A DNA stretch of 32,000 nucleotides from an uncultured Acidobacteriota bacterium (GTDB lineage Bacteria > Acidobacteriota > Vicinamibacteria > Vicinamibacterales > CAVVIG01), in contig CAWGDD010000012.1 of assembly GCA_963821285.1 (NCBI GenBank), positions 9,027-41,026 on the forward strand. The letters run 5' to 3'. Positions within the stretch are counted from its first letter, which is position 1, and the number at the start of each line of letters is the position of its first letter. Shown here piece by piece: positions 3,377 to 31,572 of this stretch. The position numbers and the translations under genes were made by a program. The notes under the pieces were generated by a model. The model made no database searches and was not told the origin of the DNA. It saw nothing but the letters and a program-made list of their open reading frames with translations.

Positions 3377-3466
3377 CTGACTGTCGACTATCGACTGCTG
3401 ACTGCCGACTGCCGACTGCCGACTGCGACTGCTGACTGCCGACTGCTGACTGCCGACTGCTGACTG
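3377..3466. repeat. 13 tandem heptamers, core GACTG (CYGACTG phase), direct orientation only
   Basis: Read unit by unit: ctgactg tcgacta tcgactg ctgactg ccgactg x3 cgactg ctgactg ccgactg ctgactg ccgactg ctgactg. Lies in the divergent gap between the HTH gene start (3319) and the PBP1A start (3500). Confidence 0.95.
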
Positions 3467-3499
3467 AATTGGCAGGCGAGTTGCACAGATCGACGCTGG

Positions 3500-5806
3500 A
3501 TGTCCCTCAGGTCCGACCTCCATGGGGCGCTGCTCCATGGCCGGTGGCGTCGCGCGTTCCACCATCAGCGCCGGCTGATAGCCGGCCTGGCCGTCGGTGT
3601 CACGGTCCTCACCGCGTCCCTGGTGGGCAGCGGCGTCTGGCTGCTCGCCAGCGTGCGCTCCGGGCTTCCTGCCAGTGAGGCGCTCGGGCGCATCGGCGAG
3701 ATGGCCGAAGCCACGCTCGTGTACGACGTCCACGACAAGCTGGCCTTCACGATCTTCAACGAACAGCGCATTGATGTCCCGCTGACGGATGTCTCTCCGC
3801 ATCTGGTCCACGCGATCATCGCGGTCGAGGATCAGCGCTTCTACACGCACCACGGGTTCGACCTGATTCGCATCGCGTCGGCCGCGCTCGTCAACGTCCG
3901 GCGCGGTCGCGCCGCGCAGGGCGGCAGCACGATCACGCAACAGCTCGCGCGGCAGAGTTTCCTCACGACCGACAAGACTCTCCGGCGGAAACTTCAGGAG
4001 CTCATCCTCGCCGAGCGCATCGAAGTGCTGTACCAGAAGACCGAGATTCTCGAGCTGTACCTCAACAAGGTCTACTTCGGCGACGGCCTCTACGGCGCCG
4101 AGGCGGCCTCGCGAGGCTACTTCGGCAAGCACGCGTCCGAGTTGTCTTTGTCGGAGGCCGCGCTGCTCGCCGGCCTCGTGAAATCCCCGACGGCCTACGC
4201 CCCGACCACCAACCTCGATCGCGCCATCACCCGCCGGAACCTCGTGCTCCAGGTCATGCGCGACACGGGCGCCATCGACCGTGAGGACTGGCAGCGCGCC
4301 CGTACCGCGCGCGTCGTCCTGCGCGATACGCTTCGGAGCAGCGACTTGCGCGGGCAGTACTTCCAGGAACAGCTGCGGCAGGAGCTCGTCGAACGCTTCG
4401 GCTGGGAGCAGGTCTACCGGGGCGGCCTCCGCGTGTACTCGACGATCGACATGGACGTGCAGGACGCCGCCGAAGCGTCGGTGGCGCAGTCGCTGAAGGC
4501 CCTCGACGAGAAACGCCAGGCGCGGACACGCGCGCGCGACGAGCGCGCTGTGAACGAAGCCCGCGCCAACACTGCCGGCCCGCTGCAGGCCGCGCTCATC
4601 GCGATGGATCCGCGCACCGGCCACGTCCGCGCGATGGTCGGCGGACGCGACTTCGCCGAGAGCCGCTTCAACCGCGCCGTGCAGGCGCGACGTCAGCCCG
4701 GCTCGGCGTTCAAGCCGTTCGTGTATGCCGCGGCGCTCGAGGCCGGGTACACCCCCGCGACGATCCTGGACCACCTGAACGATCAGGTAGCCACACCGCA
4801 GGGGAACTGGGCGCCCGCAGACGGACACTCGACGGCCGAATCGATGTCTCTGCGCACGGGGCTCAAGACCTCGAGCAACCGCGCCGCCGTACGGCTGCTG
4901 CAGCAGGTCGGCATCCCGCAGACGGTCGAGTACGCCAAAGCCATGGGCATCGGCGACGTGCCCAGCGTCCCGTCGCTCGCGCTCGGGTCCGGCGAAGTCA
5001 CGCTGCAATCGCTCACCGCCGCCTACGGGGCGTTCGCCAACCACGGCCTGGTGTCGCAACCGATCCTCATCAGGCGCGTCGAGGACACGGGCGGCAAGGT
5101 TGTGTACACGAACGAGCCCTCCACCGTTCGCGCGATCAGCGACACGACGGCGTACCTGATGTCGACGATGCTGGCCGATGTGATCAACGGGGGTACGGCC
5201 GCGAGCGCGCGCAGCTTCGGCTTCACGCTGCCGGCCGGCGGCAAGACCGGCACGACCAACGACTACAACGACGCGTGGTTCGTCGGGTTCACGCCGAACC
5301 TGGTCGCAGGCGTCTGGGTGGGGTTCGATCAGCCGCGCACGATCCTGCCGGGCGGTTTCGCGGCCGAAGTCGCCGTCCCGCTCTGGGCGCGCTTCATGAA
5401 GACGGCCACGAAAGGCGACAAGCCGGAGTGGCTGCCGATGCCCCCGGAGATCACGGTCGTCAACGTCTGCCGCCTGTCAGGGAAGCTCGCGACCGGCGGC
5501 TGCGAACACCTCGACGTCGTCGACGGCCACATCGATCACCAGCCGGCCGTCTATGCCGAGTACTTCGTGAGCGGGACGGAACCGACCGCCTACTGCGATC
5601 TGCACGGGTCCCGCGGTCTCGTCGGCGTCCTCACCTCGATCTTCCGCAGCGAGCCGCCGCCGCCCCCGCCGCACGTCGCCGATCATCAGCCACCGGCCGC
5701 GGCCGCCACCGACAGCACGCCCGCCACAGCCGCTCCGGCCGCCACCGAGGAGCCCGTCAAACAGAAGCGCGGCTTCTGGTCCAAACTGTTCGGACGCAAG
5801 AAATAG
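3500..5806 (+). CDS. mrcA: class A penicillin-binding protein 1A (glycosyltransferase GT51 + transpeptidase)
   Basis: 768 aa. N-terminal TM anchor. GT51 motifs EDQRFYTHHGFD, GGSTITQQL, RKLQE. Transpeptidase motifs SAFKP (SxxK), SSN, KTGTT. Pro/Ala-rich C-terminal tail. Confidence 0.95.
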   Translation: MSLRSDLHGALLHGRWRRAFHHQRRLIAGLAVGVTVLTASLVGSGVWLLASVRSGLPASEALGRIGEMAEATLVYDVHDKLAFTIFNEQRIDVPLTDVSPHLVHAIIAVEDQRFYTHHGFDLIRIASAALVNVRRGRAAQGGSTITQQLARQSFLTTDKTLRRKLQELILAERIEVLYQKTEILELYLNKVYFGDGLYGAEAASRGYFGKHASELSLSEAALLAGLVKSPTAYAPTTNLDRAITRRNLVLQVMRDTGAIDREDWQRARTARVVLRDTLRSSDLRGQYFQEQLRQELVERFGWEQVYRGGLRVYSTIDMDVQDAAEASVAQSLKALDEKRQARTRARDERAVNEARANTAGPLQAALIAMDPRTGHVRAMVGGRDFAESRFNRAVQARRQPGSAFKPFVYAAALEAGYTPATILDHLNDQVATPQGNWAPADGHSTAESMSLRTGLKTSSNRAAVRLLQQVGIPQTVEYAKAMGIGDVPSVPSLALGSGEVTLQSLTAAYGAFANHGLVSQPILIRRVEDTGGKVVYTNEPSTVRAISDTTAYLMSTMLADVINGGTAASARSFGFTLPAGGKTGTTNDYNDAWFVGFTPNLVAGVWVGFDQPRTILPGGFAAEVAVPLWARFMKTATKGDKPEWLPMPPEITVVNVCRLSGKLATGGCEHLDVVDGHIDHQPAVYAEYFVSGTEPTAYCDLHGSRGLVGVLTSIFRSEPPPPPPHVADHQPPAAAATDSTPATAAPAATEEPVKQKRGFWSKLFGRKK

Positions 5807-5966
5807 GTTCCGGAGGTTCCAGGGGTTCCCGAGGTTCCAGGGGTTCCCGAAGTTCCGGAGGTTCCCGAGCAGCTGCGGATTCGCCTGACAAGGGACCCGG
5901 GAGCCTGGAACCTCCCGAGCCTTCGGAACCTGGGGAACCTCCGGAACTCCGGGAACCCCTGGAACC
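5806..5966. repeat. inverted pair of nonamer arrays: 7 x GGTTCCNNN, 23-nt spacer, ~8 x NNNGGAACC
   Basis: Left arm 5806-5868 (ggttccgga ggttccagg ggttcccga ggttccagg ggttcccga agttccgga ggttcccga). Spacer 5869-5891. Right arm 5892-5966 with GGAACC/GGACCC cores. It runs from the last base of the PBP1A stop to 2 nt before the stop of the convergent GGDEF gene. Confidence 0.95.
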
Positions 5967-5968
5967 TT

Positions 5969-8233
5969 TTATTGCGTGGCGTCCTGCGTCCCTTTGGCGC
6001 GGTACATCTCCAGATCGGCGGCGTGCAGGAGATCTTCCGGCCGGTTCGCGGAGGAGCCGAACGCGATGCCGAGGCTGGCGGTCGCCACCACGGAAATCCC
6101 ATCGAGGTTGAACGGCGATCCCAGGGCCTGCTTGATGCGTTCGGCCACGGTCGCCACCTCCGCGTGCGTCGTGACGTCCTCGATCAGGATCGCGAACTCG
6201 TCCCCGCCGAGGCGGGCCACGGTGTCGGAGGGACGCACGCACCCGTGCAGGCGCCCGGCCATGGCGACGAGCAGCTGGTCGCCGACGGCGTGGCCGTAGC
6301 GGTCGTTGATGGTCTTGAACTGATCGATGTCGACGAACAGCACGGCGATCGACGGCTCACCCTCGCGCGCGCGGTTGACCGCGATCCGCAGCCGATCCAT
6401 GAACGCCGTGCGGTTCAGCGACTGCGTGAGGCCGTCGTGCGCGGCCCGGTATGACAGCTGCTCGAGCATGCGCTTCTGCACGGTGATGTCGCGCAGAAAA
6501 CCCGTGAACATGGGCGGTCCCGAGGACGGAATGCGCACGAGGGACAGCTCGACGGGGAACTCCGTGCCGTCGGCTCGCATCGCGGTCGTCTCGAAGCGGC
6601 GGTCGATGGCGCCGCCGGTTCCTGCAGCCAGGTAGCGCGCCAGCCCCTCGCGGTGCGCCGCGCGCAGCGCCGGAGGGATGATCAGCTGCGCCATCTCCTG
6701 GCCCATGACCTCGGACCGTTTGTACCGGAAGGTCCGCTCCGCCGCCGGATTGAATTCGATGATGCGCCCGCGATGATCGATCGTGATGATGCAGTCGAGC
6801 ACCGCCTCGAGGATCCCGGCTTTCCGCGCCTCGCTTTCCGCAACGTCCTGTTCGACCTGCTTCCTGGTGAGGAACTGGCCGACTTCCGCGCCGATCGTCA
6901 CGAACATCTGCAGGAAATCGGCGTCGGGCTGGCGGATGCTCCGGCGGTAGAAGAACTCGAGCACGCCGAGCAGACTGCCGCCGATACCGACGGGACAGGC
7001 AAAGGCCCCGCGCAGGCCTTCGGCGGCCGCGGCGTTCAGGCGCGCGAACGCGGGATCGCGGGGGACATCAATCAGCCACGACGGCGCGTCGCTGGCCCAT
7101 ACGCGACCCGGCAGCCCAACCCCGAGACCGAAGGATCGGCCCCGGCTGATCCGCTCGAACTCGGAAGCCAAGGCCGGCGGCTGGCGCCAGACGTTCGCGC
7201 AGTGCAAGTGCTGCGACGGGCGATCCAGGCTCCAGAACAGCCCGACTTCCCATTCCATCTGATCGCCGATCACCTCCAGAACCCGCTGCATCGCAGTGGA
7301 CGCGTCGGAGGCCTCCGCCAGCACTTGGGTGATCGCATGTTCGACGCGGCGCCGGCGCGCCGAGGCATCGCGCTCCGACACGGCGGCGCCGAGCAGGAGC
7401 CCGGTGCCCGCCACGATCCCCATGAAGATCTGCAGGAGCATGAGCCGTTCGCCGACCTCGCCGACACCGTACGGCCCCCAGCCGTGCACCGTGCCCCACA
7501 CAGCGATGGTCGACGCAAGGACGTTGGCCATGGCCGCGCCGGCAATGCCGAAGCGGATGGCCGCCCAGATGAGGAACGGAAAGACGGTGTATTCGAGCGT
7601 GTAGAGCGGCGCGCTCCCGGCGTACGAGCTGGCGAACACCGCGGTGCTCACGGAGAGCAGCCCCATCAGCAGCACGGCGGCCTCCGCCGCGCGGCCGTCT
7701 CGCCGCAGCCGGGGCCAGGCGCCCAGCGTCAGCAGCGCCGGGGCCACCAGCAGCGCGCCCACGGCGTCACCGAGCCACCACGTCCACCAGAGCTGACGGT
7801 ACGCCGACCAGGGCTGCGTGCCGCTGATGCACAGGCTCATGACGCCGATGGTGGCGCCCAGCATGGTGCTGAGAAGCGCACCGAAGACGACGAGGCCCAG
7901 GGCATGGCGGAGCCGGTCGAGCGAGGCGCCGAGGCCGGTGAAGCGGCGGAGCAGGTACGCCGCCGCGATGGCTTCGAGCGTGTTGCCGGTGGCGATGCAG
8001 AACGCCACGGGCAGCGTCTCGTTCGCCGTCGCATTGGCGATGAAGGCGCCGATGAAGACACCCGGCCAGGCCTGCCGGCCGTACAAGAGCAGGGCCGCGA
8101 GGGCGAGGCCCGTCGGCGGCCACACCAGCGTGACCTGATCGGCCGTGAAGGCCATCGTAAAGCCGAGCTTCGCCGCGGCCACGTAAACGACGGCCGTGAC
8201 GGCAGCGGTAGCCAGCGCTGACCGAGTGGGCAT
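5969..8233 (-). CDS. membrane-bound diguanylate cyclase, MASE1-like / GAF / PAS / GGDEF architecture
   Basis: 754 aa. The N-terminal ~300 aa form multiple TM helices (MASE1-like). GAF-like and PAS-like middle regions. C-terminal GGDEF domain with active-site RLGGDEFAILIE. Confidence 0.9.
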   Translation of the reverse strand: MPTRSALATAAVTAVVYVAAAKLGFTMAFTADQVTLVWPPTGLALAALLLYGRQAWPGVFIGAFIANATANETLPVAFCIATGNTLEAIAAAYLLRRFTGLGASLDRLRHALGLVVFGALLSTMLGATIGVMSLCISGTQPWSAYRQLWWTWWLGDAVGALLVAPALLTLGAWPRLRRDGRAAEAAVLLMGLLSVSTAVFASSYAGSAPLYTLEYTVFPFLIWAAIRFGIAGAAMANVLASTIAVWGTVHGWGPYGVGEVGERLMLLQIFMGIVAGTGLLLGAAVSERDASARRRRVEHAITQVLAEASDASTAMQRVLEVIGDQMEWEVGLFWSLDRPSQHLHCANVWRQPPALASEFERISRGRSFGLGVGLPGRVWASDAPSWLIDVPRDPAFARLNAAAAEGLRGAFACPVGIGGSLLGVLEFFYRRSIRQPDADFLQMFVTIGAEVGQFLTRKQVEQDVAESEARKAGILEAVLDCIITIDHRGRIIEFNPAAERTFRYKRSEVMGQEMAQLIIPPALRAAHREGLARYLAAGTGGAIDRRFETTAMRADGTEFPVELSLVRIPSSGPPMFTGFLRDITVQKRMLEQLSYRAAHDGLTQSLNRTAFMDRLRIAVNRAREGEPSIAVLFVDIDQFKTINDRYGHAVGDQLLVAMAGRLHGCVRPSDTVARLGGDEFAILIEDVTTHAEVATVAERIKQALGSPFNLDGISVVATASLGIAFGSSANRPEDLLHAADLEMYRAKGTQDATQ

Positions 8234-8297
8234 GACTCCGGGTGCGCGTGCGCAGCCACGCGCGTGTTTGGGGGGCTGAACTTAGGTTACGGGAAAC

Positions 8298-8396
8298 ACA
8301 GGGCTAAAGGCAAAGGGCAGAGCGCACAGGGCAGGTTTTTGCCCTCTGCCCTTTGCCCTTTGCCCTCTGCCCTTTGCCCTCTGCTCTCTGCTCTTC
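8298..8396. repeat. inverted pair of heptamer arrays: 5 x ARAGGGC, loop GTTTTT, 8 x GCCCTYT
   Basis: Left arm: acagggc taaaggc aaagggc agagcgc acagggc. Loop 8335-8340. Right arm: gccctct gcccttt gcccttt gccctct gcccttt gccctct gctctct gctcttc. It ends 2 nt before the stop (8399-8401) of the minus-strand OMP gene. Confidence 0.95.
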
Positions 8397-8398
8397 TC

Positions 8399-9004
8399 TT
8401 ACTGGAGGACGAGGGCCGCGCTGGCGCGCCCGAAATTCAGCTTCGTCCCGCCGCCGGGAGAGAGGCTCAGAATATTCAGTTCCTGAAACGAGTTGAAGTG
8501 GCGGATGTCGCCGCGGATGCCGACGTGCTGGCCGAACATCACGAACAAGCCGGCGCCCGCGTCCCACGCGAACGTGTTGTTGCTGAAGGAAACGATCGCA
8601 ATGGGGTTCAGGTTGACGTGGGCTTTCATCAGGCCGACGCCGAACAAGCCGTACGGACGCACCGGGCCAATCTTCGGCGCAATCATGAAGTTGCTCATGA
8701 CCGTGAGGACGTTCGAGTCCGCTCCGGACTCGCTGCTGCCGAAGAAGTCCTTGGCCCACGCGATTTCCTCTTCGAACCCGCCGGCCTTCCCCAACTTGCC
8801 GAACGAGAACCCGATGTTGAGCTTCTTCTGTTCGCAGCCTTTCAGCGTCTGGCAGAGCGAGTCGCCGCTGTAGTCGTAACCGAAGAGCGCGGTGAAAAAC
8901 CCCTGCGCTCGAGCGTCCGTAGCCGTGCACGACAGAAACGCGAGAACGGTCGCACTCAGCGCGCAGAGACGTTTGAGGTGCGCGAGCCTGGTTTTGGTGA
9001 ACAA
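8399..9004 (-). CDS. small outer-membrane beta-barrel protein (OmpW/porin-like), putative
   Basis: 201 aa. TTG start at 9004. Signal peptide ending DARAQG. Glycine/aromatic-rich alternating pattern typical of small beta-barrels. No specific family motif recognised. Confidence 0.5.
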   Translation of the reverse strand: MFTKTRLAHLKRLCALSATVLAFLSCTATDARAQGFFTALFGYDYSGDSLCQTLKGCEQKKLNIGFSFGKLGKAGGFEEEIAWAKDFFGSSESGADSNVLTVMSNFMIAPKIGPVRPYGLFGVGLMKAHVNLNPIAIVSFSNNTFAWDAGAGLFVMFGQHVGIRGDIRHFNSFQELNILSLSPGGGTKLNFGRASAALVLQ

Positions 9005-9427: not shown

Positions 9428-9431
9428 GGGG

Positions 9432-10214: not shown

Positions 10215-10243
10215 AGCATCACCACACTGCGATCGTGCCTTAA

Positions 10244-10315
10244 CGAACCACAAGGATCACCAAGGCCACCAAGCAATCGTGAACCCTTTGTGAGCCTCGT
10301 GGTCTTTGTGGTTCG
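10244..10315. repeat. inverted pair of degenerate nonamer arrays (CACCAAGG-type) closed by a perfect 10-bp outer inverted repeat
   Basis: cgaaccacaa (10244-10253) is the exact reverse complement of ttgtggttcg (10306-10315). Inner units are ggatcacca aggccacca versus tgagcctcg tggtctttg. It lies between the cyclase-family stop (10328) and the start of the next minus-strand gene (10214). Confidence 0.85.
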
Positions 10316-10327
10316 TACGTTCGTCCA

Positions 10328-11374
10328 TCAAAACATCGCGAGCGGGTTGACGATCGAGCCGGTGCTGCCCGGCACCTGCAGCGGCGCGACGACAAGCATG
10401 AACTCCCAGCGGTTCAGACGTGCGGCGGCCTCGGCCAGGCCGTCGAGCGCGACGCCGTCGAGCAGATAGGTGCCGAGTGCCACCAGCACGAGCCGGTGAT
10501 CGGCGTGACGATCCTCCGCGATCGCCATCACGTTGCTGGTCACGGCCACCCCGCGCGCCTTCATCCACGGCACCACCGACAGGTCGAACCCGGCGGCGGG
10601 CGCAGGCGGCTGTGCGCCGGCGCTCCTCGGGTTGTAGACGAACAGGGCGTCGCCCGCCGACACCTTCAGACCGGTCTGCATCTCCCAGGCTTCGATGTCT
10701 TCCGTATACACTCGCGTTCCCGCTTCGTTGTTTCCACGCGTTCCCGCTTCATTTCTTCCACGCGTTCCGGCTTGGCCGGAACGCGGATTCTTCAGGCGCG
10801 TCATGTCGATCAGAATCCCGCGCGTGACGATGCCCTCTTTGACGTTGTCGAGTCCGAGCTTCGTGCAGCCGATCTCCTGGCTGACGCTCTCGAGCGGGTA
10901 GCCGTTGTAGAGTTTTCCGCCGGAGCTGTCGTGGCAGAGTGCGTCGAGATGCGTCATCGGCCCGTGGACGTGCGACTCCTGGATGTCGCTGCTGAACCCG
11001 TCGTTGCCGCGGGGATCGCCGGCGGGAAACGTCTTGAAGCGGATGTCGAAGAACGCGACGCCGTGCGGCTTGCCGTCGGCTTTCGTTTCATCCGGCGCCT
11101 TCGACGGCACAATCCGCCGTTCGAGGGACACCACGGTGCCCGTTTTCGCAAGGGCCATCGCCTGACGCCGCTTCTCCGCCGTGATGAGGTTCAGGGCGCC
11201 CAGCTGATCGTCCTTGCCCCAGCGGCCCCAGTTCGACAGCTCGGTCATCCACCGATCGGCCTCGGCCTTCGTGACCGGCGGATGCCCGGGAATCGGGGAC
11301 GCGGGCTGCTGCGCGTGTCCTGCCGTCATTGGCAAGGTCAGTAGCGCCGTGAGAACGATCGCGCGAGGTGTCAT
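10328..11374 (-). CDS. cyclase-family protein (kynurenine formamidase-like fold), exported
   Basis: Start moved to ATG 11374 (AGAGGA upstream). Signal peptide MTPRAIVLTALLTLPMTAGHAQQ. HVHGPMTHLDALCH resembles the HxGTHxDxxxH metal motif of the putative cyclase family (PF04199). It carries an internal 24-nt repeat. Confidence 0.75.
   Translation of the reverse strand: MTPRAIVLTALLTLPMTAGHAQQPASPIPGHPPVTKAEADRWMTELSNWGRWGKDDQLGALNLITAEKRRQAMALAKTGTVVSLERRIVPSKAPDETKADGKPHGVAFFDIRFKTFPAGDPRGNDGFSSDIQESHVHGPMTHLDALCHDSSGGKLYNGYPLESVSQEIGCTKLGLDNVKEGIVTRGILIDMTRLKNPRSGQAGTRGRNEAGTRGNNEAGTRVYTEDIEAWEMQTGLKVSAGDALFVYNPRSAGAQPPAPAAGFDLSVVPWMKARGVAVTSNVMAIAEDRHADHRLVLVALGTYLLDGVALDGLAEAAARLNRWEFMLVVAPLQVPGSTGSIVNPLAMF
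10708..10786. repeat. three copies of a 24-nt unit inside the cyclase-family CDS; the last copy forms a perfect 11-bp hairpin
   Basis: The core cgcgttcc(c/g)gctt recurs at 10713, 10737 and 10761, exactly 24 nt apart. cgcgttccggc (10761-10771) / ttg / gccggaacgcg (10775-10785) is a perfect inverted repeat. The region encodes GQAGTRGRNEAGTRGNNEAGTRV in frame. Confidence 0.9.
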
Positions 11375-11435
11375 GGTTTCATCCTCTGCTCCCTGCCCGC
11401 CCGCTACGATAACATGTCGGATAAGCGCCACCGAC

Positions 11436-11470
11436 GACTGGCGACTGGCGACTGACGACTGACGACTGAT
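11436..11470. repeat. 5 tandem heptamers GACTGRY abutting the aminotransferase start codon
   Basis: Units: gactggc gactggc gactgac gactgac gactgat. The last unit overlaps ATG 11469. Same core and orientation as the arrays at 3377 and 13774. Confidence 0.9.
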
Positions 11471-13773: not shown

Positions 13774-13808
13774 GACTGCCGACTGCTGACTGCTGACTGC
13801 TGACTGAC
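13774..13808. repeat. 5 tandem heptamers GACTGYY immediately after the aminotransferase stop
   Basis: Units: gactgcc gactgct gactgct gactgct gactgac. The array starts 2 nt after TAG 13770-13772. Confidence 0.9.
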
Positions 13809-13907
13809 ACGTTGCGCCCGTGACCACGGACGCCCGTTGGAAACCGTGGCCACGAGAGCACGTTGCTCCCGTGACCAACTTGAGCACCTTGAAAACGGTG
13901 ACGCCCG

Positions 13908-14243
13908 TTAGAAGTCGATCGTCGCGTTGAACCGCAGGAACCGCACGTTCAGGATCGCGGTCGGACGCAGCCACGCTGACCCGTCCGCTCCATACGCCTG
14001 GTTGAACGTGGTCCCCGTGTTCGCGTTGAACAGGTTGTAGAGATCGATTCCGACGTTGCTGCGGGTTCTCCCGAACTTGAGGATCTTCGAGAACCGCATG
14101 TCGACGGTGTTGAGCCGGTCGGGGTAGATGTCGCCCTGCTTGCTCAGGTTGACAGTGATGTTCTGTCCGTTGCCCGCCAGCGGACGGCCGGCGGCGGCAA
14201 TCACCTGGGCGTTGGTCATGACGTTCAGTCCGTCAGTGTTCAT
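13908..14243 (-). pseudogene. 3' remnant (~105 codons) of a TonB-dependent receptor / outer-membrane beta-barrel gene
   Basis: The translation ends ...DMRFSKILKFGRTRSNVGIDLYNLFNANTGTTFNQAYG...ILNVRFLRFNATIDF, with the terminal-Phe beta-barrel signature typical of roughly 1000-aa TonB-dependent receptors. An in-frame TGA lies 6 codons upstream of the first Met. An AT-rich junction and an opposite-strand gene follow immediately. Confidence 0.6.
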
Positions 14244-17224: not shown

Positions 17225-17262
17225 GATGCCGATCGTTATACACCCATCGGGGTAGAATCTTT

Positions 17263-17436
17263 CCGGTCCTCGGGCCTTGGTACTGGTCCTTGGTCCGTTC
17301 TTGGTCCTTGGTCCGTCCTTCGTCCGTGGTCCCATGGTCCATGCTGTCCGCTGCAGATCGCCGTGCCGCGCACCAGGAACCAAGGACCGAGGATGGACCA
17401 GGGACCAGAACGAAGGCCCAAGGCCCAGAGACCACC
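17263..17436. repeat. inverted pair of GGTCC / GGACC-core arrays (18-nt super-period in left arm) with 27-nt spacer
   Basis: Left arm 17263-17343: ggtcctcgg gccttggta ct ggtccttggtccgttctt ggtccttggtccgtcctt cgtccgtggtcccatggtccatg. Spacer 17344-17370. Right arm 17371-17436: ...aaggaccgaggatggaccagggaccagaacgaaggcccaaggcccagagaccacc. It lies in the divergent gap between starts 17224 (-) and 17459 (+). Confidence 0.9.
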
Positions 17437-19936: not shown

Positions 19937-19943
19937 ATACGAA

Positions 19944-20051
19944 TTTGGTCATCTGGTCATTTGGTCATCTGGTCATCGTTGTGTGATTGAACCAGTTGTT
20001 CAATCGAACAGAAATGACCAGATGACGAGATGATCAAATGACCAGATTCGA
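19944..20051. repeat. inverted pair of octamer arrays (4 x GGTCATYT / 5 x ARATGAYC) with a nested 8-bp hairpin in the spacer
   Basis: Left arm: ggtcatct ggtcattt ggtcatct ggtcatcg (19947-19978). The spacer contains gattgaac (19985-19992) / cagtt / gttcaatc (19998-20005). Right arm: aaatgacc agatgacg agatgatc aaatgacc agattcga (20012-20051). It lies between convergent stops 19936 and 20058. Confidence 0.95.
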
Positions 20052-20923: not shown

Positions 20924-23559
20924 ATGCGCACATTTCTCGGCGCTACCGCCGCGAGTCTTCTGCTCGCCAGCATGATCGGGTACGCGCAGACCGAGCAGTC
21001 CGTGTCGAGACTCGATAACGAATCGTCCGATTCCTGGTTCGTCGAGCTGGCGAGCCCCCCGACCACCGAAGGCACGGCCACCGCCACGCTCGAACGCGAG
21101 GAAGCGACGTTCCACGCGGCCGCCGCGGGCGCCGGCGTCCGGTACTCGCGCGGACGCAGCTACCGTGACCTCTGGAACGGCGTCACGGTGCGCGCGACGG
21201 CCCGCGAAGTGTCGAAGCTGCGCTCGCTCCCGGGTGTACAGGCGGTGTATCCGGTCGTCAAGATCTCGATACAGCAGGCCGAAGAGCCGCCGGGTGACGT
21301 CGCGGATCTGGTGACGGCGATCAAGATGACCGGCGCCGACGTCGCGCAGAGCGTGCTCGGGCTGTCGGGCCGCGGCGTGAAAGTCGCCGTGATCGACACC
21401 GGTATCGACTACAACCATCCAGACCTCGGCGGATGTTTCGGCCGCGGCTGCCGCGTCAGCCTCGGCTTCGATTTCGTGGGCGATGACTTCAATTCGAGCT
21501 CAGCCGACCCGGCGAAGCTGGTCCCCACCCCGATCCCGACCCCGACGACTGCAACGGCCACGGCACACACGTGAGCGGCATCATCGGCGCCAACGGCGTC
21601 ATCAAGGGCGTCGCGCCCAACGTCAGGTTCCGCGCGTACCGTGTCTTCGGCTGCGAGGGCTCGACGACGGCCGACATCATGCTCGCCGCCATGGAGCGCG
21701 CGCGGGCCGACGGCGCCGACGTCGTGAACATGAGCATCGGCAGCGCGCTGTCGTGGCCGCAGTACCCGACCGCGAAGGCCGCCGACCGCCTCGTCCGCCA
21801 CGGCGTCGTCGTCGTCGCGTCGATCGGCAACGAGGGCGCGCTCGGCCTCTACGGCGCCTCCGCGCCCGGCGTCGGCAGGAACGTGATCGGCGTCGCGTCG
21901 TTCGACAACTCGCACGCGAATCTCGTCGCGTTCACGATCTCGCCCGACGCGGCGAAAGTCGGCTACGTGGACGCGGCAGGCGCGCCGCCGACGCCCCTGG
22001 CTGGCTCGTTCCCGATGGCCCGGACCGGCACCACCACGACCACCGACGACGCGTGCGCGGCGCTGACGCCGGGAAGTCTGACAGGCAGCGTCGTCCTGAT
22101 TCGGCGCGGCACCTGCTCGTTCTACCAGAAGGCGTTCAACGCGCAATCGGCCGGCGCGGCGGGCGTCGTGCTCTACAACAACGCCCCGGGCTTCATCTCG
22201 CCGACCGTGGCGGGCACACCGGCCATCACGATTCCCGTCGTCTCCATCAGCGCCGCCAACGGCGCCGTGATCAACGGACGCCTCGCCGGCGGCAGCGTGA
22301 CCATGACGTGGACATCGCTGGTCACCAGCGAAGCGCAGCCGACCGGCGGCCTCATCTCCAGCTTCTCGTCGTATGGCCTGCCGCCCGATCTCAGCTTCAA
22401 GCCGGACATCGGCGCGCCCGGCGGCTCAATCCGCTCGACACTACCGCTCGAGCAGGGCGGGTACGGCAACCTGAGCGGGACGTCGATGTCGTCGCCGCAC
22501 GTCGCCGGAGCCGTCGCGCTCCTGCTCGAGGCACGGCCAGACGCCCGCCCGCAGGAAGTCGAGCAGCGCCTGCAGAACTCGGCGCGGCCGGCGGTGTGGT
22601 GGGGCAACCCCGCGCTGGGCTTCCTCGACAACGTCCATCGCCAGGGCGCGGGCATGCTGCGCATCGACGACGCGGTAAAGGCCGACGCGATCGTGTCCCC
22701 GAGCAGCCTCGCACTCGGCGAGATCGAGACGGGCTCTGTCACGAAGCGGCTCCGCGTCTCCCTGGACGATGACGACGATCACCGCGACCATCATCATTGG
22801 GGCGACAAGCACAAGGGACGCGGCCACGACGATGATGACGACGATACCCCGGTCACGTACACGCTGAGCCACGAGCCGGCGCTCTCGACCGGCGCGAACA
22901 CGTTCACGCCGTCGTTCCGCACCGGCTTCGCGACCGTCACGTTCAGCGCGCCGACCGTGACCATCGGCGGCGGCCACCACCATCACGAGGACGTCGACTC
23001 GATCGACGTCACGATCACGCCTCCTGCGGCGGATCCGGCGACCCGGCTATTCGGCGGGTACATCGTGTTCACCCCTGACGACGGCAGCGGCGTGCTGCGC
23101 GTGCCGTACGGTGGATACAACGGCGACTACCAGGCGATCGTGGCCGTGACGCCGACGCCGGCCGGATTCCCGTGGCTGGCGAAGATCGTCGGACCGAACC
23201 TCGTCAACCAGCCGGGCGGCGCCACCTACACTCTCGTAGGCGACGATGTCCCGTTCCTCCTGCTGCACCTCGACCACCAGGTCAGGACGCTGAAGCTGGA
23301 CGTCATCGACGTGGCGACCGGCGAATCGGCGGGCTTCGCCGACATCGAGGAGTTCCTGCCGCGCAACAGCACCGCGACGTCGTTTTTCGCGTTCACGTGG
23401 GACGGCACCGTGATGCATCGGCCGGGGGGCATGCTCCGGCCGGTCGCCGACGGGGCGTACCGGATTGAACTGTCGGTGCTCAAGGCGCTGGGCGATCCCG
23501 ACAACCCCGCCCACACCGAGCACTGGACGTCGCCGAACATCACAATCGATCGGCCATAA
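20924..23559 (+). pseudogene. secreted subtilisin-like (S8) serine protease with PA-domain insert and C-terminal Fn3-like region; frame broken once near 21528-21534 (possibly a sequencing artefact)
   Basis: Signal peptide. The catalytic Asp (VAVIDTGIDYNHPDL) is in frame 1. DPDPDDCNGHGTHVSGIIG (catalytic His) and GTSMSSPHVAG (Ser) are in the next frame. Frame 1 stops at 21574. The frames can be joined by adding one C to the C4 run at 21528-21531. PA-domain segment: SVVLIRRGTCSFYQKAFNAQSAGAAGVVLYNN. Confidence 0.85.
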
Positions 23560-23562: not shown

Positions 23563-23667
23563 GAGGTCCAAGAGGTCCAAGGTCCGAGGGGTCCGAGGGG
23601 TCCAAGCCCAGGTGGACCTCTCGGACCACTCGGACCTAATCTCTTGTGGTCTTGGACCTCTCGGACT
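23563..23667. repeat. inverted pair of GGTCC / GGACC nonamer arrays
   Basis: Left arm: gaggtccaa gaggtccaa ggtccgagg ggtccgagg ggtccaagc (23563-23607). Right arm: gtggacctc tcggaccac tcggaccta ... ggtcttggacctctcggac (23612-23667). The reverse complement of 23611-23637 matches 23581-23604 with 2 mismatches. The array starts 4 nt after the protease stop. Confidence 0.9.
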
Positions 23668-24914: not shown

Positions 24915-24921
24915 GATCTCA

Positions 24922-24975
24922 GGACCCCTGGGACCCCTCGGACCTCTCGGACCCCTCGGACCCCTGGGACCTATC
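24922..24975. repeat. 6 tandem nonamers GGACCYCTS, single arm
   Basis: Units: ggacccctg ggacccctc ggacctctc ggacccctc ggacccctg ggacctatc. It lies between convergent genes, and the last unit overlaps the ppc stop codon (24971-24973). Confidence 0.95.
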
Positions 24976-27799
24976 CCGTGGCGCCAAGCCCCCCGGCGAT
25001 GGCGTTGACGGTGAGCAGGAGCGGCGGGAGGACCGCGGCGGCAGCTTCAGCGTCGCCCACGCGGTTGGCGCGCCGCCAGTCGCGCAGGAGCGCGATCTGC
25101 CGATCGTGCAGGACGCGGAGCGGCGCCCGCCGCATCTGCACGGTCGCATGGATGTTCGGGCGGCGCTCGGCGAGCGTCCCCCGATAGATCCGCTCGAGCA
25201 TCAGCGACGTCCGCTCGAACTCGCGCGTGATCAGCCCGAAGATGTCCGCACGGCACACCTCGTCTTCGACGAGGCAGGCGTAGGCCCGCATGACGTCGAG
25301 GTCGGCCGCCGCGATGCACGTGGCGGCGTTGCTCAGCGCGTAGTGCAGCGGCGCCCATGTGTAGAGATGCTGCAAGAGCCCGGCGAACTCGTCCGGGCGT
25401 TCCGCCTGCAGCGCCTCGAGCGCGCTCCCCACGCCGTACCAACCCGGAATGACGTACCGGGCCTGGCTCCAGCTGAACACCCACGGGATCGCCCGGAGGT
25501 CCTCGAGCGCGGGCTGCCCGGTCCGGCGCGACGGACGCGACCCGATCCGGCTTTCCTCGATCGCATCGATCGGCGTGGCCTGCCGGAAGAACGCAAGGAA
25601 CCCCGGCGCCCTGCCGCAGATGGGTGTACGTCTGCCGGCTCCGCTCGGCGAGCCAGTCCATCGTCGGCTCCAGCACGTGCGGCGGCTCGGGCGCGTGCTG
25701 GTCGAGCAGCGTCGCGCGGGCCACGCCCGCGAACAGCAGCTCCAGGTTGTAGACGGCCGTCAGGCGGTTCGCGAACTTCTGCTCGATCGCCTCGCCCTGC
25801 TCCGTCACCCGCAGGTCGCCGTTCAATGCCGACGGGTGGATCGCCTTCACGAACCGGTGCTCGGGCCCGCCGCCGCGCGACATCGTTCCCCCACGGCCGT
25901 GCAGGAACCGGATCCTGACGCCCGACTCGCGTCCGGCGCGGACGAGCGCGGCCTCGGCGCGGTAGAGACTCCAGAGGCTCGCAAGGATGCCGCCGTCCTT
26001 GTTGCTGTCGCTGTAGCCGACGACGACCTGCTGAATATGTTCACTGCCTCCGGGCCCCTTGGGCCCTCCGGCCTGGCGGCGCTGCTGTTCGAGGCTCCGG
26101 CGCGTCATCGGATGCCGGAGGAATGCCCGGAGGATCTCCGGGCTTCGCTCGAGGTCCTCGATCGTCTCGAACAGCGGCACCACCGGCAGCCGGCACGCCA
26201 GCCCCGATCCGTCGTTCGTCGTCAGGCCCACTTCGCGGGCGAGCAGATACACGCCGAGCAGGTCGGACGCGCTGCGCGTCATGCTGACGATGAGCGCGCC
26301 CAGGCCGTCCGGGCCGTGGTCGCGCACGTGATCCGCCAGCACGCGGAAGGTCGCCAGGGCCGCGTCGGCCTCCGGACCCGCCGACAGATCCGCGCGGAGA
26401 AACGGCCGCGGCGACGCCAGCTCGCGATCGAGGAACTCCAGCCGGCGCTCTTCGGTCCAGCGCGGGTAGTCGGACGGCTCGAGCCCGGCGGCCCGCTGCA
26501 ACTGCCCGATCGCGCGTTCGTAAAACGCGCTGTTCTGGCGGATGTCGAGCGACGCCAGATGAAACCCGAACGTCTCCGCCGTCCGAATCACCGGCGCGAC
26601 GGCGGCGTCCGCCACGCGCCAGGCACCGACGGCGACGAGCGACTCCTGCAGCAGCCGCAGATCGGCGATGAGTTCGGCGGCGCGCTGGTACCCTCCTGAA
26701 CCCGGTCGCAGACGTCCGCCTTCGGGGTAGACGCTTTCGAGCGGCAGCTGCGCCAGCATCAGGCCGACAAACCGACGCCAGGTCTCGCCGGCTTCGATAG
26801 TGTCTCCCCCGCCCTGCAGCGGGCGGGGTACGCGCTTCCACGAGATCGCCGACGCGGGCGATCAACGCCGGTGGCGGCGGCTCGAGGCGATCCGACAGGC
26901 TCACCTGCCGGCCGAGCGCGACGAGCTGACGCTGGAGCAACAGCAACGCGTGCAGGCGCAGATCCTCGAGCGTCTCCCGCGTGACGTCCGGCGTCACCAG
27001 TGGGTGCCCGTCCTGATCGCCGCCCACCCAGGTTCCCAGACGGCACCGCGGCAGCTGCTCGGGAGCCCGAAGCAGATCCGGGTCGAAGCCCAGGTGCTCC
27101 CAGCTCTGACGCAGCCGGCCGTCGAGCGCCGGCAGGACGTCGGGAAAGACGCGTGTAGAGGTAGTGCATGACGTTCCGCCGCTCGGCCGCCACGTCGGGC
27201 TTGTGCAGGAAGATTTCGCCCGTGCGCCACAGGAGCGACAGCAGCGTCTTGAACTCGTCGCGAATCGCGCGCTGCTCGTTGGGCGTCCACACCTGGTTCT
27301 CGCGCTTCACGAGCAGCAGGTAGAGGCTGCGATGGTGCTCGAGGACGATGGTGCGCTTCGCCTCGGTCGGGTGCGCGGTCAGCACCAGCTCGACCTGCAC
27401 GCGCTGCAGCGTCGCCGCGATCTGATCGGCCGTGAGGCCGCGGTCTCTCAACTGCTCGAGGCTCTGTCCCCACAGCGCCTGCAATGCCGACGGTCCGTGC
27501 GCCGCCTCGGTGGAGCGCTGCTGCTGGATCGCCGCGTTCTGCTCCACCAGGCTCAGCAGGTGAAACGCGATCGAGTACGCGCGCGACAGCCGGTCGGGCG
27601 ATACCGAGTCGTCGCCCGCGGCCGCATCGGCGATGCGCCACGGCAGCTGGCGCGCGAGGCGGTGCTCCTGCGCCTCGACCAGGACCTCGGACAGGCAGCC
27701 CATCACGAAGGCGAGATCGCGTTCGACCTTCTGCGGATCGAGAACCAGAATCGGCGACAGGATCATGTTGGGAGCCGATCCGGCCGACGCAACGAGCAT
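24971..27799 (-). pseudogene. ppc: phosphoenolpyruvate carboxylase, reading frame broken three times as given (possible sequencing artefacts)
   Basis: PEPC motifs are spread over four track ORFs or frames: VLTAHPTEAKR (26759..27799 ORF), GGDQDGHPLVTPDVT (26041..27027), VVVGYSDSNKDGG and LHGRGGTMSRGGGP (25047..26759), FSWSQARY...LLTVNAIAGGLGATG (24971..25480). Frame switches are needed near 27149-27160, 26795-26845 and 25601-25604. Confidence 0.9.
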
Positions 27800-27859
27800 G
27801 CCGCGCGGATCCGGGGCATGAATCGACCCCGCGCACGCGATTCAGACATTCCTGTGGTG

Positions 27860-27881: not shown

Positions 27882-27939
27882 GAACGTTGCACACGAGCGC
27901 CCGGGCCGCAGTCGCGATCCCGCGCTAAAATTGGACAAG

Positions 27940-29344
27940 ATGAAGCGCATCGGCATCCTCACCGCCGGCGGCGACACGCCCGCCCTCAACGCGGCCATTC
28001 ACGGCGCGGTGGTCCGCGCGAACAAGCTGCGGATCGAGATCTACGGGCTCATCAAGGGCTTCAACTGCCTGTTCAACCCGCGCGTGCCGCATCTCCATCT
28101 GAATCCGCTGTTCCAGGAGATCCCGGAGCTCGATCCGACCAAGGGCGGCACGCTCATCGGCTCGTCGCGCGACTACGTCGATCCGGAGAAGAAGGCCGAT
28201 CTCGATCTCATTTCCTCGCGCCTCACGAAGCTCGGCATCGAAGGGCTCATCTGCGATCGGCGGCGACGGCACGCTCAACGCGCTGCAGCCGCTGGCCGAG
28301 CGGCTGCCCACCGTCCTCGCGCCCAAGACGATCGACAACGATCTCGGGCTGAACTACCCGAGCGAGCCCGACGAGTGGGTCCGCGTGAAGGATCCCGACG
28401 CGACCCACGGCTATCGCTACACGCGCACGCCGTCCAACGCCAACTTCGATCTCAACCACATCGTGAACTACGCGACGCCGGGGTACGCGACCGCCGTCTT
28501 CGTCACCGCGCAGGGCGTCGAGCGTCTCCGGACGACGGCGGAGAGCCATCGCCGCATCGCGATCATCGAGGTGATGGGGCGGCATTCGGGCTACATCGCG
28601 CTCGGCACGGCGTACGGCCAGCCGGACATCATCCTCGTCCCCGAGCATCCGCTCGACATGACGCTGCTCGTCGAGCGCGTCAAGCACCTCTACGAGCTCC
28701 AGAAGAACGTCGTCATCGTCTGCGGCGAGGGCATGGTCGACGAGGAGGGCAACGAGCTGGGCGCCGTGTCGACGTCCATCGACCCGGCCGGCAATGTGCT
28801 GTTGTCCGGCGCCGCCGAGGCGCTGCGCGAACGGATGATCAAGGAGCTGGGCGATCGCTACTTTCAGCTCTATCGCCGCGGCAGCTCGGCGCGCGAGGCG
28901 ATCTTCACCAGAAAAGTCGGCCACACGCAGCGCGGCGGGCGGCCGATTCTGTTCGATCGGTTCTACGCGGCCGCGCTCGGCGCCAAGGCCGTCGATCTGC
29001 TCGTCGAGGGGCGCAACAACGCCGTGTCGGTGCTGCAGTACCACGCCCAGAACGGCTTCCACGTCGAGGGGTACGACGCGAACCGGTTCCGCGACCGCTG
29101 GGGCCTGATTCACGCCCGGCAGATGCACCCGGCGTTCTACGATCCGCTGATGATGAAGCCGTCGCGGATCGGCATCGAGTACCTGCTGCCGATCTTCACC
29201 GACGCGATCGGCAGCGACGATGCGGAGCACATGCGGCAGACGCTGTTCGACCCCGGCAACCTCGCGCAGCCGTATCACTCGATCAACACCGACATCCACA
29301 AGCGCATCCGCTACCTCGACGCCGACCACGACGCTCGCGACTAG
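27940..29344 (+). pseudogene. pfk: 6-phosphofructokinase (PfkA family, long form; ATP versus PPi dependence not resolvable), frame broken once at 28252-28255 (possible sequencing artefact)
   Basis: MKRIGILTAGGDTPALNAAI is in the first frame. After ...IEGLIC the conserved IGGDGTLNA...PKTIDNDL...VMGRHSGYIAL continues in the +1 frame. Removing one nucleotide from tgcg (28252-28255) restores one 467-codon ORF. Confidence 0.9.
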
Positions 29345-29351
29345 CTGCCAG

Positions 29352-29439
29352 CGACGTGGAACGCAGAGATCGCGGAGATCGCTGAGATCCCGATAGATAG
29401 ATAACTCTGCGTTCTCGGCGGGCTCTGCGTTCCACGTCG
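29352..29439. repeat. nonamer arrays (ATCGCNGAG / CTCNGCGNN) enclosed by a perfect 17-bp inverted repeat
   Basis: cgacgtggaacgcagag (29352-29368) is the exact reverse complement of ctctgcgttccacgtcg (29423-29439). Inner units: atcgcggag atcgctgag atcccgata gatagataa ctctgcgtt ctcggcggg. It lies between the pfk stop (29344) and the ABC ATPase start. Confidence 0.95.
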
Positions 29440-30434: not shown

Positions 30435-31480
30435 CGCCGCTCGTCCAGCTCGTGCTCGCGCGGCTGCGGGCGTTCTACCGGGAGCCCGGCGCGGTGTTCT
30501 GGGTGTACGGCTTCCCGCTGCTCATGGTCGTCGCGCTGGGCATCGCCTTCCGCGCGAACCCCGTCGAAAAAGTGACGGTCGACGTGCAGGCGGGTCCGCG
30601 GGCCGAACAGGTTCGCGACGCGCTGCTCCAGCAGTCGACCGGCAAGAGCCTGACGTTCGCCGTCCGCATCGACGACGAGGAGACCAGCCGGCGGCGCCTC
30701 CGCACCGGCAAGACGGATCTCGTGGTGCTCGTCTCCTCCGACGGCAGCTATCAGTACCGTCTCGACCGGAGCCGCGCCGAAAGCCGTCTCGCGCGGACCG
30801 CCGTGCACGAGGCCCTGCAGCGCGCGGCCGGCCGGACCGATCCGGTCCCGACGCTGGCCGACGAGGAGATGCTCGAGCCCGGCAGCCGCTACATCGACTT
30901 CCTGGTGCCCGGGCTCGTCGGCATGGGCCTGATGGGCGGCGGGCTGTGGGGCGTCGGCTTCGCCATCGTCGACATGCGGATCCGCAAGCTGCTCAAGCGG
31001 TTCGTCGCCACGCCCATGCGCCGCAGCGATTTCCTCCTCGGCATCATGATCAGCCGCCTGGTGTTCATGATCCCGGAAGTGGTCGTGATCCTGATCTTCG
31101 CGCGCGTCTTTTTCGGCGTCGTCGTGGCCGGCAGCTTCGGCGCGGTGCTGGTGCTGATCCTCGTCGGCGCCTTCACGTTCGCCGGCCTCGGGCTCCTGGT
31201 CGCGTGCCGTGCGAAGACGCTCGAGGCCGTGTCGGGCCTGATGAACCTGACGATGCTGCCGATGTGGCTGCTGTCGGGAATCTTCTTCTCGCCCGATCGG
31301 TTCCCTCAGGCCGTGCAGCCGCTCATCAGGCTCGTCCCGCTGACGCCGCTCATCGAAGGCCTTCGCGCCGTGATGCTCGAAGGCGCATCCCTCGCCTCAC
31401 AGAGCCTGAACGTCGCCATTCTGCTGGCGTGGGGCGCCGTCACGTTCGCCCTCGGGATCAAGCTGTTCCGCTGGAACTAA
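30431..31480 (+). CDS. ABC-2 type transporter permease
   Basis: 349 aa. ATG 30431 overlaps the upstream stop by 4 nt. One N-terminal TM, a large loop, then five C-terminal TM helices. This is the typical ABC-2 membrane-protein layout. Confidence 0.85.
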   Translation: MTPLVQLVLARLRAFYREPGAVFWVYGFPLLMVVALGIAFRANPVEKVTVDVQAGPRAEQVRDALLQQSTGKSLTFAVRIDDEETSRRRLRTGKTDLVVLVSSDGSYQYRLDRSRAESRLARTAVHEALQRAAGRTDPVPTLADEEMLEPGSRYIDFLVPGLVGMGLMGGGLWGVGFAIVDMRIRKLLKRFVATPMRRSDFLLGIMISRLVFMIPEVVVILIFARVFFGVVVAGSFGAVLVLILVGAFTFAGLGLLVACRAKTLEAVSGLMNLTMLPMWLLSGIFFSPDRFPQAVQPLIRLVPLTPLIEGLRAVMLEGASLASQSLNVAILLAWGAVTFALGIKLFRWN

Positions 31481-31492
31481 CGTCTACGAAAC

Positions 31493-31572
31493 GCACGGAG
31501 CCACAGAGGCACCGAGAGCACCGAGGGTTTCTACATATGAGAAATGCCTCTGTGATCTCTGTGCCTCCGTGG
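31493..31572. repeat. inverted pair of nonamer arrays (CACNGAGNC / GNCTCNGTG) around an AT-rich loop
   Basis: Left arm: gcacggagc cacagaggc accgagagc accgagggt. Loop: ttctacatatgagaaat. Right arm: gcctctgtg atctctgtg cctccgtgg. It lies between convergent stops 31480 and 31592. Confidence 0.9.

Follow-up and report, generated by a model that had tools for sequence, protein, structure and literature searches.

Arrays of short tandem units, many of them paired as inverted repeats, in the intergenic DNA of a Vicinamibacterales (Acidobacteriota) genome

Introduction

The Vicinamibacteria rank with the most abundant bacteria of soils, yet to our knowledge little has been learned about how their transcription units end. 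We describe here arrays of short tandem units in the intergenic DNA of an uncultured Vicinamibacterales bacterium of the Acidobacteriota. The stretch analysed, referred to as the window, comprises 32,000 nucleotides (GenBank assembly GCA_963821285.1, contig CAWGDD010000012.1, positions 9,027 to 41,026; coordinates below count from its first letter). A preliminary description made from this sequence had listed 14 array loci, at most of which a run of 7- to 9-nt units is followed by the same units in reverse complement. The arrays exceed chance expectation, lie mainly outside genes and are found again in related genomes, where their units and unit numbers change between close relatives.

Genes and arrays of the window

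The window has a G+C content of 67%, and its nearest named relatives are labelled as metagenome-assembled genomes (MAGs) of Acidobacteria or Vicinamibacterales. Genes were mapped by third-codon-position G+C together with a small codon-usage gene caller. When the caller was compared with the Joint Genome Institute (JGI) annotation of a syntenic locus, L001, all stop coordinates were exact and the starts mostly agreed (L-numbers denote related loci or contigs compared with the window). Pfam and the JGI annotation of syntenic loci identified ordinary chromosomal genes, housekeeping in nature, located on both strands and syntenic with relatives. The first part of the window encodes an NtrC-type regulator, OmpA, an HTH protein (HTH_25; 2621-3319, minus strand), PBP1A (3500-5806, plus strand), a GGDEF protein, an outer-membrane beta-barrel (8399-9004, minus strand), a cyclase and an aminotransferase. 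The rest encodes PEP mutase, DinB, a transketolase-like protein (17459-19936), an S8 subtilase (20972-23559), DUF4010, PEP carboxylase (24971-27799), phosphofructokinase (27940-29344) and an ABC-2 transporter. As the preliminary description had stated, no transposase, RAYT or cas gene is present among them.

Five apparent frameshifts were observed in conserved window genes: PEP carboxylase has three, phosphofructokinase has one, and another splits the S8 subtilase near 21520-21545. In L001 and L003 the genes for PEP carboxylase and phosphofructokinase are both intact. Several of the window frameshifts lie near short C or G runs. They are probably long-read consensus indels and not pseudogenes; hence the exact unit counts of the window arrays may also be slightly off.

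Array detection was carried out with Tandem Repeats Finder (TRF), which placed arrays at or beside all 14 coordinates listed earlier. The 18 merged arrays cover 916 nt, against a mean of 0.54 arrays (maximum 2) in 50 second-order Markov shuffles, and the loci are thus real. About ten different units occur within the 32 kb, most of them without G-runs. Arm pairs were returned by an inverted-repeat finder at 5802-5970, 8297-8395, 10243-10316, 17262-17429, 19940-20050, 23580-23637 and 29352-29439. Eight inverted-pair loci were counted in all, namely these seven, the sixth with wider limits of 23563-23666, and 31493-31572. RNA folding of each locus was compared with 200 dinucleotide shuffles. The eight inverted-pair loci gave energies of about -35 to -111 kcal/mol and z-scores of -5.1 to -12.3, and none of the 200 shuffles folded as well. 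Four intergenic arrays are direct-only (3379-3466, 11433-11469, 13774-13806 and 24917-24972) and have no excess structure (z -1.5 to +1.0). The statement that the arrays are mostly inverted pairs therefore holds for 8 of the 12 intergenic loci, and the same eight are far more stable than shuffled controls; neither holds for the remaining four. Both intragenic arrays preserve the reading frame, with a 9-nt unit in the linker of the aminotransferase and a 24-nt unit in the cyclase gene, while 7- and 8-nt units occur only outside genes, as had been proposed from the window and is seen also in a larger set of loci (see below).

An array was found in 10 of the 16 gaps of 40 nt or more by automated count, and in 12 of 18 by manual mapping once the weakly periodic hairpins at 10243 and 31493 were included. 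With arrays in only about two thirds of such gaps, the earlier wording of "almost every" gap was slightly overstated. The distribution over gap classes is as first described: every convergent gap is filled almost stop to stop, four arrays come after a stop between co-directional genes, and divergent gaps hold three.

Individual arrays

Among the arrays of convergent gaps, the pair at 5802-5970 consists of about seven copies of the nonamer GGTTCCNNR followed by about seven copies of its reverse complement (-110.5 kcal/mol, z -8.4). It fills the PBP1A/GGDEF gap stop to stop, its first unit begins within the TAG stop codon, and inside it lies the only match to a hairpin plus U-tract at a gene end in the window. 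In the gap after transketolase, four copies per arm of the octamer TGGTCATY surround a unique inner stem (19940-20050; -69.8 kcal/mol, z -12.3); this pair fills the gap and was found in all eight lineages examined. The hairpin at 31493-31572, after the ABC-2 permease gene, is weakly periodic with CACNGAGNC-like units (-43.7 kcal/mol, z -6.2) and falls below the TRF score threshold. The DUF4010/PEP carboxylase gap is filled by a direct-only nonamer array detected by TRF (24917-24972; GGACCCCTS, about 5.6 copies, z +1.0), which overlaps the PEP carboxylase stop codon and whose unit is the reverse complement of the GGTCCNAGG family.

After co-directional stops, the asymmetric pair at 8297-8395 (minus strand; -65.6 kcal/mol, z -6.7) begins 3 nt from the stop of the outer-membrane beta-barrel gene, with a GGGCARA-type arm of 38 nt and a TGCCCTY arm of 58 nt; the orthologous gap of L001 and L003 has an ordinary hairpin without an array. 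A weakly periodic hairpin of CACMAAGG-like units (10243-10316, minus strand; z -5.1) lies 11 nt after the cyclase stop. Its left arm is homologous to non-repeated sequence of L001 and its right arm is present only in the window. At 23563-23666 (plus strand; -54.6 kcal/mol, z -7.05), 3 nt after the subtilase stop, about five copies of GGTCCRAGR are followed by about three in reverse complement and a third short arm, and an orthologous pair is present in L002. The hairpin at 29352-29439 (plus strand; -57.6 kcal/mol, z -7.15) begins 7 nt after the phosphofructokinase stop and has a partly periodic stem with about three copies of GAGATCGCN.

Divergent gaps contain a direct-only heptamer array between the HTH_25 and PBP1A genes (3379-3466, plus strand; TRF, GACTGCY, about 12.7 copies, z -0.38, no structure) and another that abuts the aminotransferase start codon (11433-11469, plus strand; TRF, GACTGRC, about five copies, z -1.25); the orthologous gap of L001 and L003 lacks the latter. 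The DinB/transketolase gap carries an inverted pair with GGTCCTT-like arms (17262-17429; -111 kcal/mol, z -9.35). A motif, TTATACACCCATCGGGGTAGAATCTT, is conserved upstream of transketolase (window 17235-17262; L001 9945-9972; also L002, L003 and L091-L094) and is probably a promoter, with TAGAAT as the putative -10 box. In the window, L002 and L094 an array or hairpin follows directly after the TAGAAT motif. Because the window hairpin of about 170 nt lies just downstream of this motif, it is probably within the transketolase 5' leader.

A direct-only array of about 4.7 copies of GACTGCT (13774-13806) starts 2 nt after the aminotransferase stop and is followed by about 2.8 copies of a 26-nt repeat (together 13774-13877, plus strand; z -1.5). 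The segment 13773-14277 is absent from L001 and L003, where 8-15 bp separate the aminotransferase gene from that for PEP mutase. In addition to the two repeats, this segment holds a 111-residue C-terminal fragment resembling an outer-membrane receptor (13908-14243, minus strand), and a full-length CarboxypepD_reg/OMP gene of 1037 residues is present nearby in L002; the segment looks like a rearrangement remnant.

Of the two intragenic arrays, the one in the cyclase gene (10713-10773, minus strand; TRF, 24-nt unit, about 2.5 copies) has no excess structure (z -1.7). Translated, it gives the repeat AGTRGxNE, and the protein is 16 residues longer than in L001. In the aminotransferase, about ten in-frame copies of the nonamer GGTCCNAGR (12326-12415, plus strand) encode EVRGVQ-like repeats. 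The same linker consists in L003 (5515-5574) of SSG repeats from (GGTTCAAGC)n read in a different frame, and in L001 (5571-5591) of a short Ser/Gly run. Judged from the predicted proteins, a repeat array is rewriting a protein linker here.

Gene content also differs around some of the arrays. After the gene for a 118-residue membrane protein, the window has DUF7662, subtilase and DUF4010 genes, whereas L001 and L003 have a VIT1 gene (window 20924-23559 versus L001 13068-13703). An ABC-2 transporter pair lies between phosphofructokinase and a sigma-54 activator-like gene in the window and is absent from L001 and L003.

Arrays in related genomes

Similar arrays are present in syntenic contigs of independent JGI metagenomes with 92-97% transketolase identity to the window. 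Some are orthologous to those of the window, for example the TGGTCATY hairpin after transketolase and the GGTCCGAG pair. Array density was surveyed at 80 loci around the transketolase gene in GTDB species genomes. Per 10 kb, the window has 5.6 arrays and most loci labelled Vicinamibacterales 1.3-4.8. One groundwater Acidobacteria MAG reaches 5.8 and one Acidobacteriales MAG 4.9, and the values are 0-0.5 in most Bryobacterales and Terriglobia. The arrays are a strong feature common to a lineage.

General rules were derived from 85 non-redundant related loci (1.44 Mb). Intergenic DNA (151 kb) contains 93 arrays and coding DNA (1,294 kb) 53, which is a 15-fold enrichment outside genes. Intergenic periods are most often 7 (40 arrays), followed by 8 (21) and 9 (12), and the period is a multiple of three in 41 of the 53 intragenic arrays. 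Where neighbouring arrays lie 150 nt or less apart, 15 of 21 pairs match in reverse complement with at most one mismatch and none match directly. Of the gaps of 40 nt or more at the 15 array-rich loci, arrays occupy 67% where the genes converge, 31% where they are co-directional and 28% where they diverge; the corresponding figure for array-poor loci is 2-4% of gaps. Many arrays of co-directional gaps begin 0-8 nt from the upstream stop, with a median of 83 nt to the next start. The units of related genomes are quite different from those of the window, and some are AT-rich.

Turnover of the arrays

Unit-number polymorphism, which had been suggested as a check on the arrays, was observed between L003 and L005, two samples of one population from different JGI metagenomes. 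These are 99.8% identical over 14.5 kb, with eight substitutions. The sole indel between them is 27 bp long, exactly three GAACCTCTA units, and lies in one arm of the hairpin after phosphofructokinase (L003 18178-18213 versus L005 10206-10268); the arms thus change independently.

The DinB/transketolase gap has no array in L001, L003 and L091-L093, a direct-only (CTTGGGN)5 in L002, and an inverted pair of 150-170 nt in L094 and the window, with unit numbers that differ per arm and arm lengths that differ between these two. These states vary among relatives of 95-97% identity and do not follow transketolase identity, which points to repeated gain and loss or to recombination. Units turn over as well. 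After phosphofructokinase, L001 and L003 have in common a small central hairpin (GGCGGAAAA...TTTCCGC), which is flanked by GGTCCACA (period 8) in the former and GGTTCGAGA (period 9) in the latter. Differing units and periods around a conserved centre are what concerted evolution within arrays would produce. The proposal that the arrays are generated locally, and are not insertions of one mobile element, is borne out by orthologous gaps in which an array has grown in place from a non-repeated seed.

Unit families and comparison with known elements

Unit sequences had been described as differing between loci. Many are indeed unrelated, but GACTGNN arrays occur at three loci (3379, 11433 and 13774, all on the same strand), and GGTCCNAGR arrays with identical 9-mers occur at 12326, 23563 and, in reverse complement, 24917, with a GGTCC-core relative at 17262. 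By their sequences, these recurring units are small dispersed families. Neighbouring gaps also have units in common in L046, L038, L076 and L037, and the core of the aminotransferase linker array matches the intergenic arrays of its own genome, GGTCC in the window and GGTTC in L003; L001 mixes both. Such sequence matches within a genome hint at exchange between loci. GGTCCNAGR arrays of opposite orientation lie on either side of the DUF4010 gene (23563-23606 and 24917-24972), and GACTGNN arrays of the same orientation on either side of the aminotransferase gene (11433-11469 and 13774-13806). A gene enclosed by repeats of this kind could become inverted or deleted through them.

In metagenomes, (GGTCCNAGR)3GGTCC was found in at least 120 stretches (L095-L214). 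Among the matches listed, high-GC contigs hold a GGTCCNAGR array at 45 or more intergenic and 20 or more coding places, and 43 of the 120 matches are in contigs below 60% GC, many of them marine. The low-GC matches could be collagen-like coding repeats, as GGT CCN AGR would read Gly-Pro-Arg/Ser. The unit is widespread; in a collection of this size, dispersal and independent origin give the same picture.

No 4-mer dominates among the units, and when they are clustered by shared 6-mers all of them chain into one cluster. A core in common with the heptamers of cyanobacteria and Beggiatoa (ACTG/GACT) was rejected, since ACTG occurs in 8 units against 4.4 expected and this count is inflated by orthologous loci. 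GGWCC, the AvaII-type site to which the preliminary description had drawn attention, occurs 26 times per kb inside arrays and 1.9 times per kb outside. Outside arrays it is neither avoided nor enriched (59 observed, about 71 expected), and a restriction or methylation signature was rejected on this ground. Rfam covariance models gave no match at gathering thresholds. Repetitive extragenic palindromic (REP) sequences and REPINs were dismissed because the loci have no common consensus and the window no RAYT gene. MITEs (miniature inverted-repeat transposable elements) were dismissed because ortholog comparison shows growth from local sequence without flank duplication, and CRISPR because the units are contiguous and a cas gene is absent. 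Integron attC sites were considered as well; the genes here are housekeeping genes in synteny with relatives and on both strands, and the stems consist of tandem units. The heptamers do not serve as three-frame stop codons either, a stop being present in 15 of 31 stop-adjacent units in sense and 12 of 31 in antisense, compared with 45% in shuffled units.

Hairpin structure and terminator signals

At the hairpin downstream of transketolase (19940-20050), the arms are 81-88% identical between the window and L001 by manual count from the alignment, against 64% at fourfold-degenerate sites, and the loop is scrambled between the two. The hairpin structure is maintained; maintenance at the RNA level is not detectable (see Discussion).

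Of the properties of an intrinsic terminator, a GC-rich stem-loop downstream of a gene is present at the eight inverted-pair loci, and a U-tract after the stem is absent. The window shows no enrichment of classical hairpin-plus-U terminators (11 matches, about 14.5 expected). Convergent gaps with z below -3 make up 46% in array-poor loci compared with 62% in array-rich loci. Given structured convergent gaps in array-poor relatives and no excess of U-tract terminators, the arrays sit where ordinary 3' hairpins sit. The view that terminator function cannot account for all arrays was upheld, since at array-rich loci 28% of divergent gaps hold an array and four loci of the window are direct arrays without structure.

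Discussion

We consider it reasonably probable that the arrays are long simple-sequence repeats (LSSRs) made locally by slippage and tolerated in non-coding or frame-safe sites, with the paired ones at ordinary 3' hairpin positions. According to this explanation, LSSRs with 7-9-nt units would arise and turn over in place by replication slippage. They would persist where selection tolerates them: in the non-coding DNA that begins at a stop codon, chiefly that of convergent gaps, and within genes only if the unit is a multiple of three. An inverted partner would give a long DNA or RNA hairpin able to pair in many registers. Once paired, the arms would gain and lose units independently while unit variants sweep through the array by concerted evolution, so that the unit sequence drifts and the hairpin stays. 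The second arm may be a product of template switching, or a small pre-existing hairpin may have been extended outward. When transcribed, paired arrays would most likely be terminators or pause sites that lack a U-tract, or barriers to 3' exonucleases, which would insulate neighbouring transcription units. A part in termination or in RNA stabilisation would be plausible, and the direct-only arrays probably represent neutral by-products or spacers.

Several observations weigh against this explanation. Purely local origin leaves the recurrence of a unit family within a genome unexplained. Over its whole length, the hairpin at 19940-20050 is no more conserved than fourfold-degenerate sites (85.5% versus 85.6% identity between the window and L002; 79% versus 81% between L001 and L003), and only 2 of its 39 pairs have a compensatory change. 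Sense and antisense folds of structured co-directional gaps show no asymmetry (15 versus 12 gaps, mean difference -1.2 kcal/mol), and by this test, with folds of equal stability, RNA-level selection is not detectable. Only one consensus match to a hairpin plus U-tract lies within an array (5948-5963), the array hairpins being otherwise devoid of U-tracts. A strong hairpin (17262-17429) occupies a divergent 5' region, and one intergenic array in three lacks an inverted partner. Block-wise inverted duplication would predict that the order of unit variants is mirrored between the arms; this is significant in only 5 of 13 pairs, a weak point because the test favours irregular arrays.

Function may instead have come first. 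The hairpin arrays would then be selected RNA elements, serving as the main factor-independent terminators of the lineage, as mRNA 3' stabilisers or as insulators, and the repeats would build and tune their long stems. In keeping with this, the arrays are biased towards 3' ends and convergent gaps and abut stop codons, no enrichment of canonical terminators is seen, and hairpin arms are more conserved than fourfold-degenerate sites. Moreover, different species carry hairpin arrays of unrelated units at the same gene ends (both transketolase flanks and after phosphofructokinase). On the other hand, sense and antisense folds are alike, compensatory changes are few, U-tracts are missing, arrays are gained and lost among 95-97% relatives, and some lie in divergent gaps or are direct-only and unstructured. 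A selected function as the origin is a tentative possibility. A further-reaching proposal, which we regard as doubtful, is that self-extending tandem-repeat hairpins replace the U-tract terminator as the main factor-independent 3'-end signal in Vicinamibacterales-like Acidobacteriota, and that unit sharing (GGTCC in the window, GGTTC in L003) is due to a trans-acting factor or to undescribed templated copying. If true, the strength of a terminator or insulator would vary within populations, as slippage changes hairpin length.

Spread of a few families by transposition or ectopic gene conversion, in the manner of REP/REPIN, MITEs or the short tandemly repeated repetitive (STRR) sequences of cyanobacteria, would account for the recurrence of GACTGNN and GGTCCNAGR in the window, for units common to neighbouring gaps, for linker arrays built on the intergenic core of their own genome and for the many intergenic places with GGTCCNAGR in high-GC metagenome contigs. 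However, the arrays have no terminal inverted repeats, target-site duplications or common non-repeat sequence, they grow from local seed sequence, and the window has no transposase or RAYT gene. L001 mixes GGTTC and GGTCC arrays, and the metagenome collection is so large that any unit could have arisen independently in it; a dispersed element is therefore unlikely. Still less support can be given to the GGWCC or GGTTCC cores as binding or methylation sites of a sequence-specific protein. The dense GGWCC inside arrays would fit, but its frequency outside them is close to expectation, most units have no such core, no 4-mer dominates, and the units of related genomes are unrelated and sometimes AT-rich, which makes this very unlikely and leaves the AvaII idea unsupported. 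The five apparent frameshifts suggest an error-prone long-read assembly, from which the arrays themselves might be suspected as artefacts. Orthologous arrays in independent assemblies, from several JGI samples and from NCBI MAGs, make an assembly or sequencing artefact hardly credible; the existence of the arrays is secure, while exact unit counts are uncertain.

If the hairpins mark 3' ends, they would allow operon boundaries to be read from the sequence by a simple rule in a lineage in which no excess of U-tract terminators was found, and would be regulatory structures that change length within populations. Even if neutral, the arrays could serve as markers for strain typing and as a natural system for the study of slippage and palindrome formation. 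They are also likely to break short-read assemblies, and new protein linkers can arise from them, the aminotransferase being an example.

Comparison with known systems

The architecture had been regarded as not described, which proved incorrect. Heptamer arrays of the same layout are known from Xanthomonas (Rehm et al. 2015, PMC4692102), and heptamer excess and the multiples-of-three rule date from 2007. The GGGAATC heptamers of Xanthomonas are arranged head to tail and are 89-93% intergenic. Their mean distance to the upstream gene is 28 nt, with frequent overlap of its stop, and they form 70-75 convergent inverted pairs per genome that are capable of stem-loops. Their array lengths differ between related species, and transcripts tended to start or stop at them (PMC4692102). 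The arrays described here are likewise intergenic and stop-proximal, with convergent inverted pairs. Unlike Xanthomonas, in which one G-rich unit with G-quadruplex potential is used genome-wide, they are built from many unrelated 7-, 8- and 9-nt units; inverted pairs are the majority form, and arrays occupy about two thirds of gaps.

According to the survey of Mrazek et al. (2007; summaries in PMC4679880 and PMC4692102), LSSRs of prokaryotes have 5-11-nt units, most commonly heptamers, with multiples of three preferred in genes, and slippage was proposed for their origin. The richest genomes of that survey were those of Burkholderia, cyanobacteria, Actinobacteria and Xanthomonas. Head-to-tail units beyond chance, heptamer excess, the frame rule and slippage-type changes of unit number agree with those summaries; inverted pairing, frequent here, is not part of the LSSR description they give. 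Heptamer families dispersed in intergenic DNA include STRR of Calothrix and Nostoc and TAACTGA of Beggiatoaceae (MacGregor 2015, PMC4679880). Some Vicinamibacterales loci have AACTGAA or ACTGAAA arrays that resemble TAACTGA, but no common core is statistically supported. TAACTGA arrays lie mostly just upstream of start codons, with one inverted case reported (PMC4679880), whereas the present arrays are biased towards 3' ends and form inverted pairs.

The tandem repeats of Borgs are pervasive, evolve fast and arose independently, each locus having a unit of its own (Schoelmerich et al. 2023, PMC9879509). Inside genes all their unit lengths are divisible by three, as are those of a minority of intergenic ones. 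Fast-changing arrays, a unit that differs by locus and the frame rule are features in common. The Borg repeats studied are perfect and A-rich, have a length of 50 nt or more, some with units of 18-21 nt, and belong to an archaeal extrachromosomal element; no inverted pairing is reported for them (PMC9879509), unlike the arrays described here. With intrinsic terminators and the 3' hairpins of REP and bacterial interspersed mosaic elements (BIMEs), the paired arrays share GC-rich stem-loops straight after stops, commonest between convergent genes, but they differ in having no U-tract, arms of 25-64 nt made of tandem units and no REP consensus.

No description of such arrays in Acidobacteriota was found in the literature searched. 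The architecture is already known; the present arrays differ in the many unrelated units per short stretch, the mixture of 7-, 8- and 9-nt units, the inverted pair as majority form, a very high density and the phylum in which they occur. The occurrence of such arrays in a third lineage, after Xanthomonas and cyanobacteria, and with many units in place of one, suggests that a structure or a mutational mechanism outweighs any sequence-specific factor.

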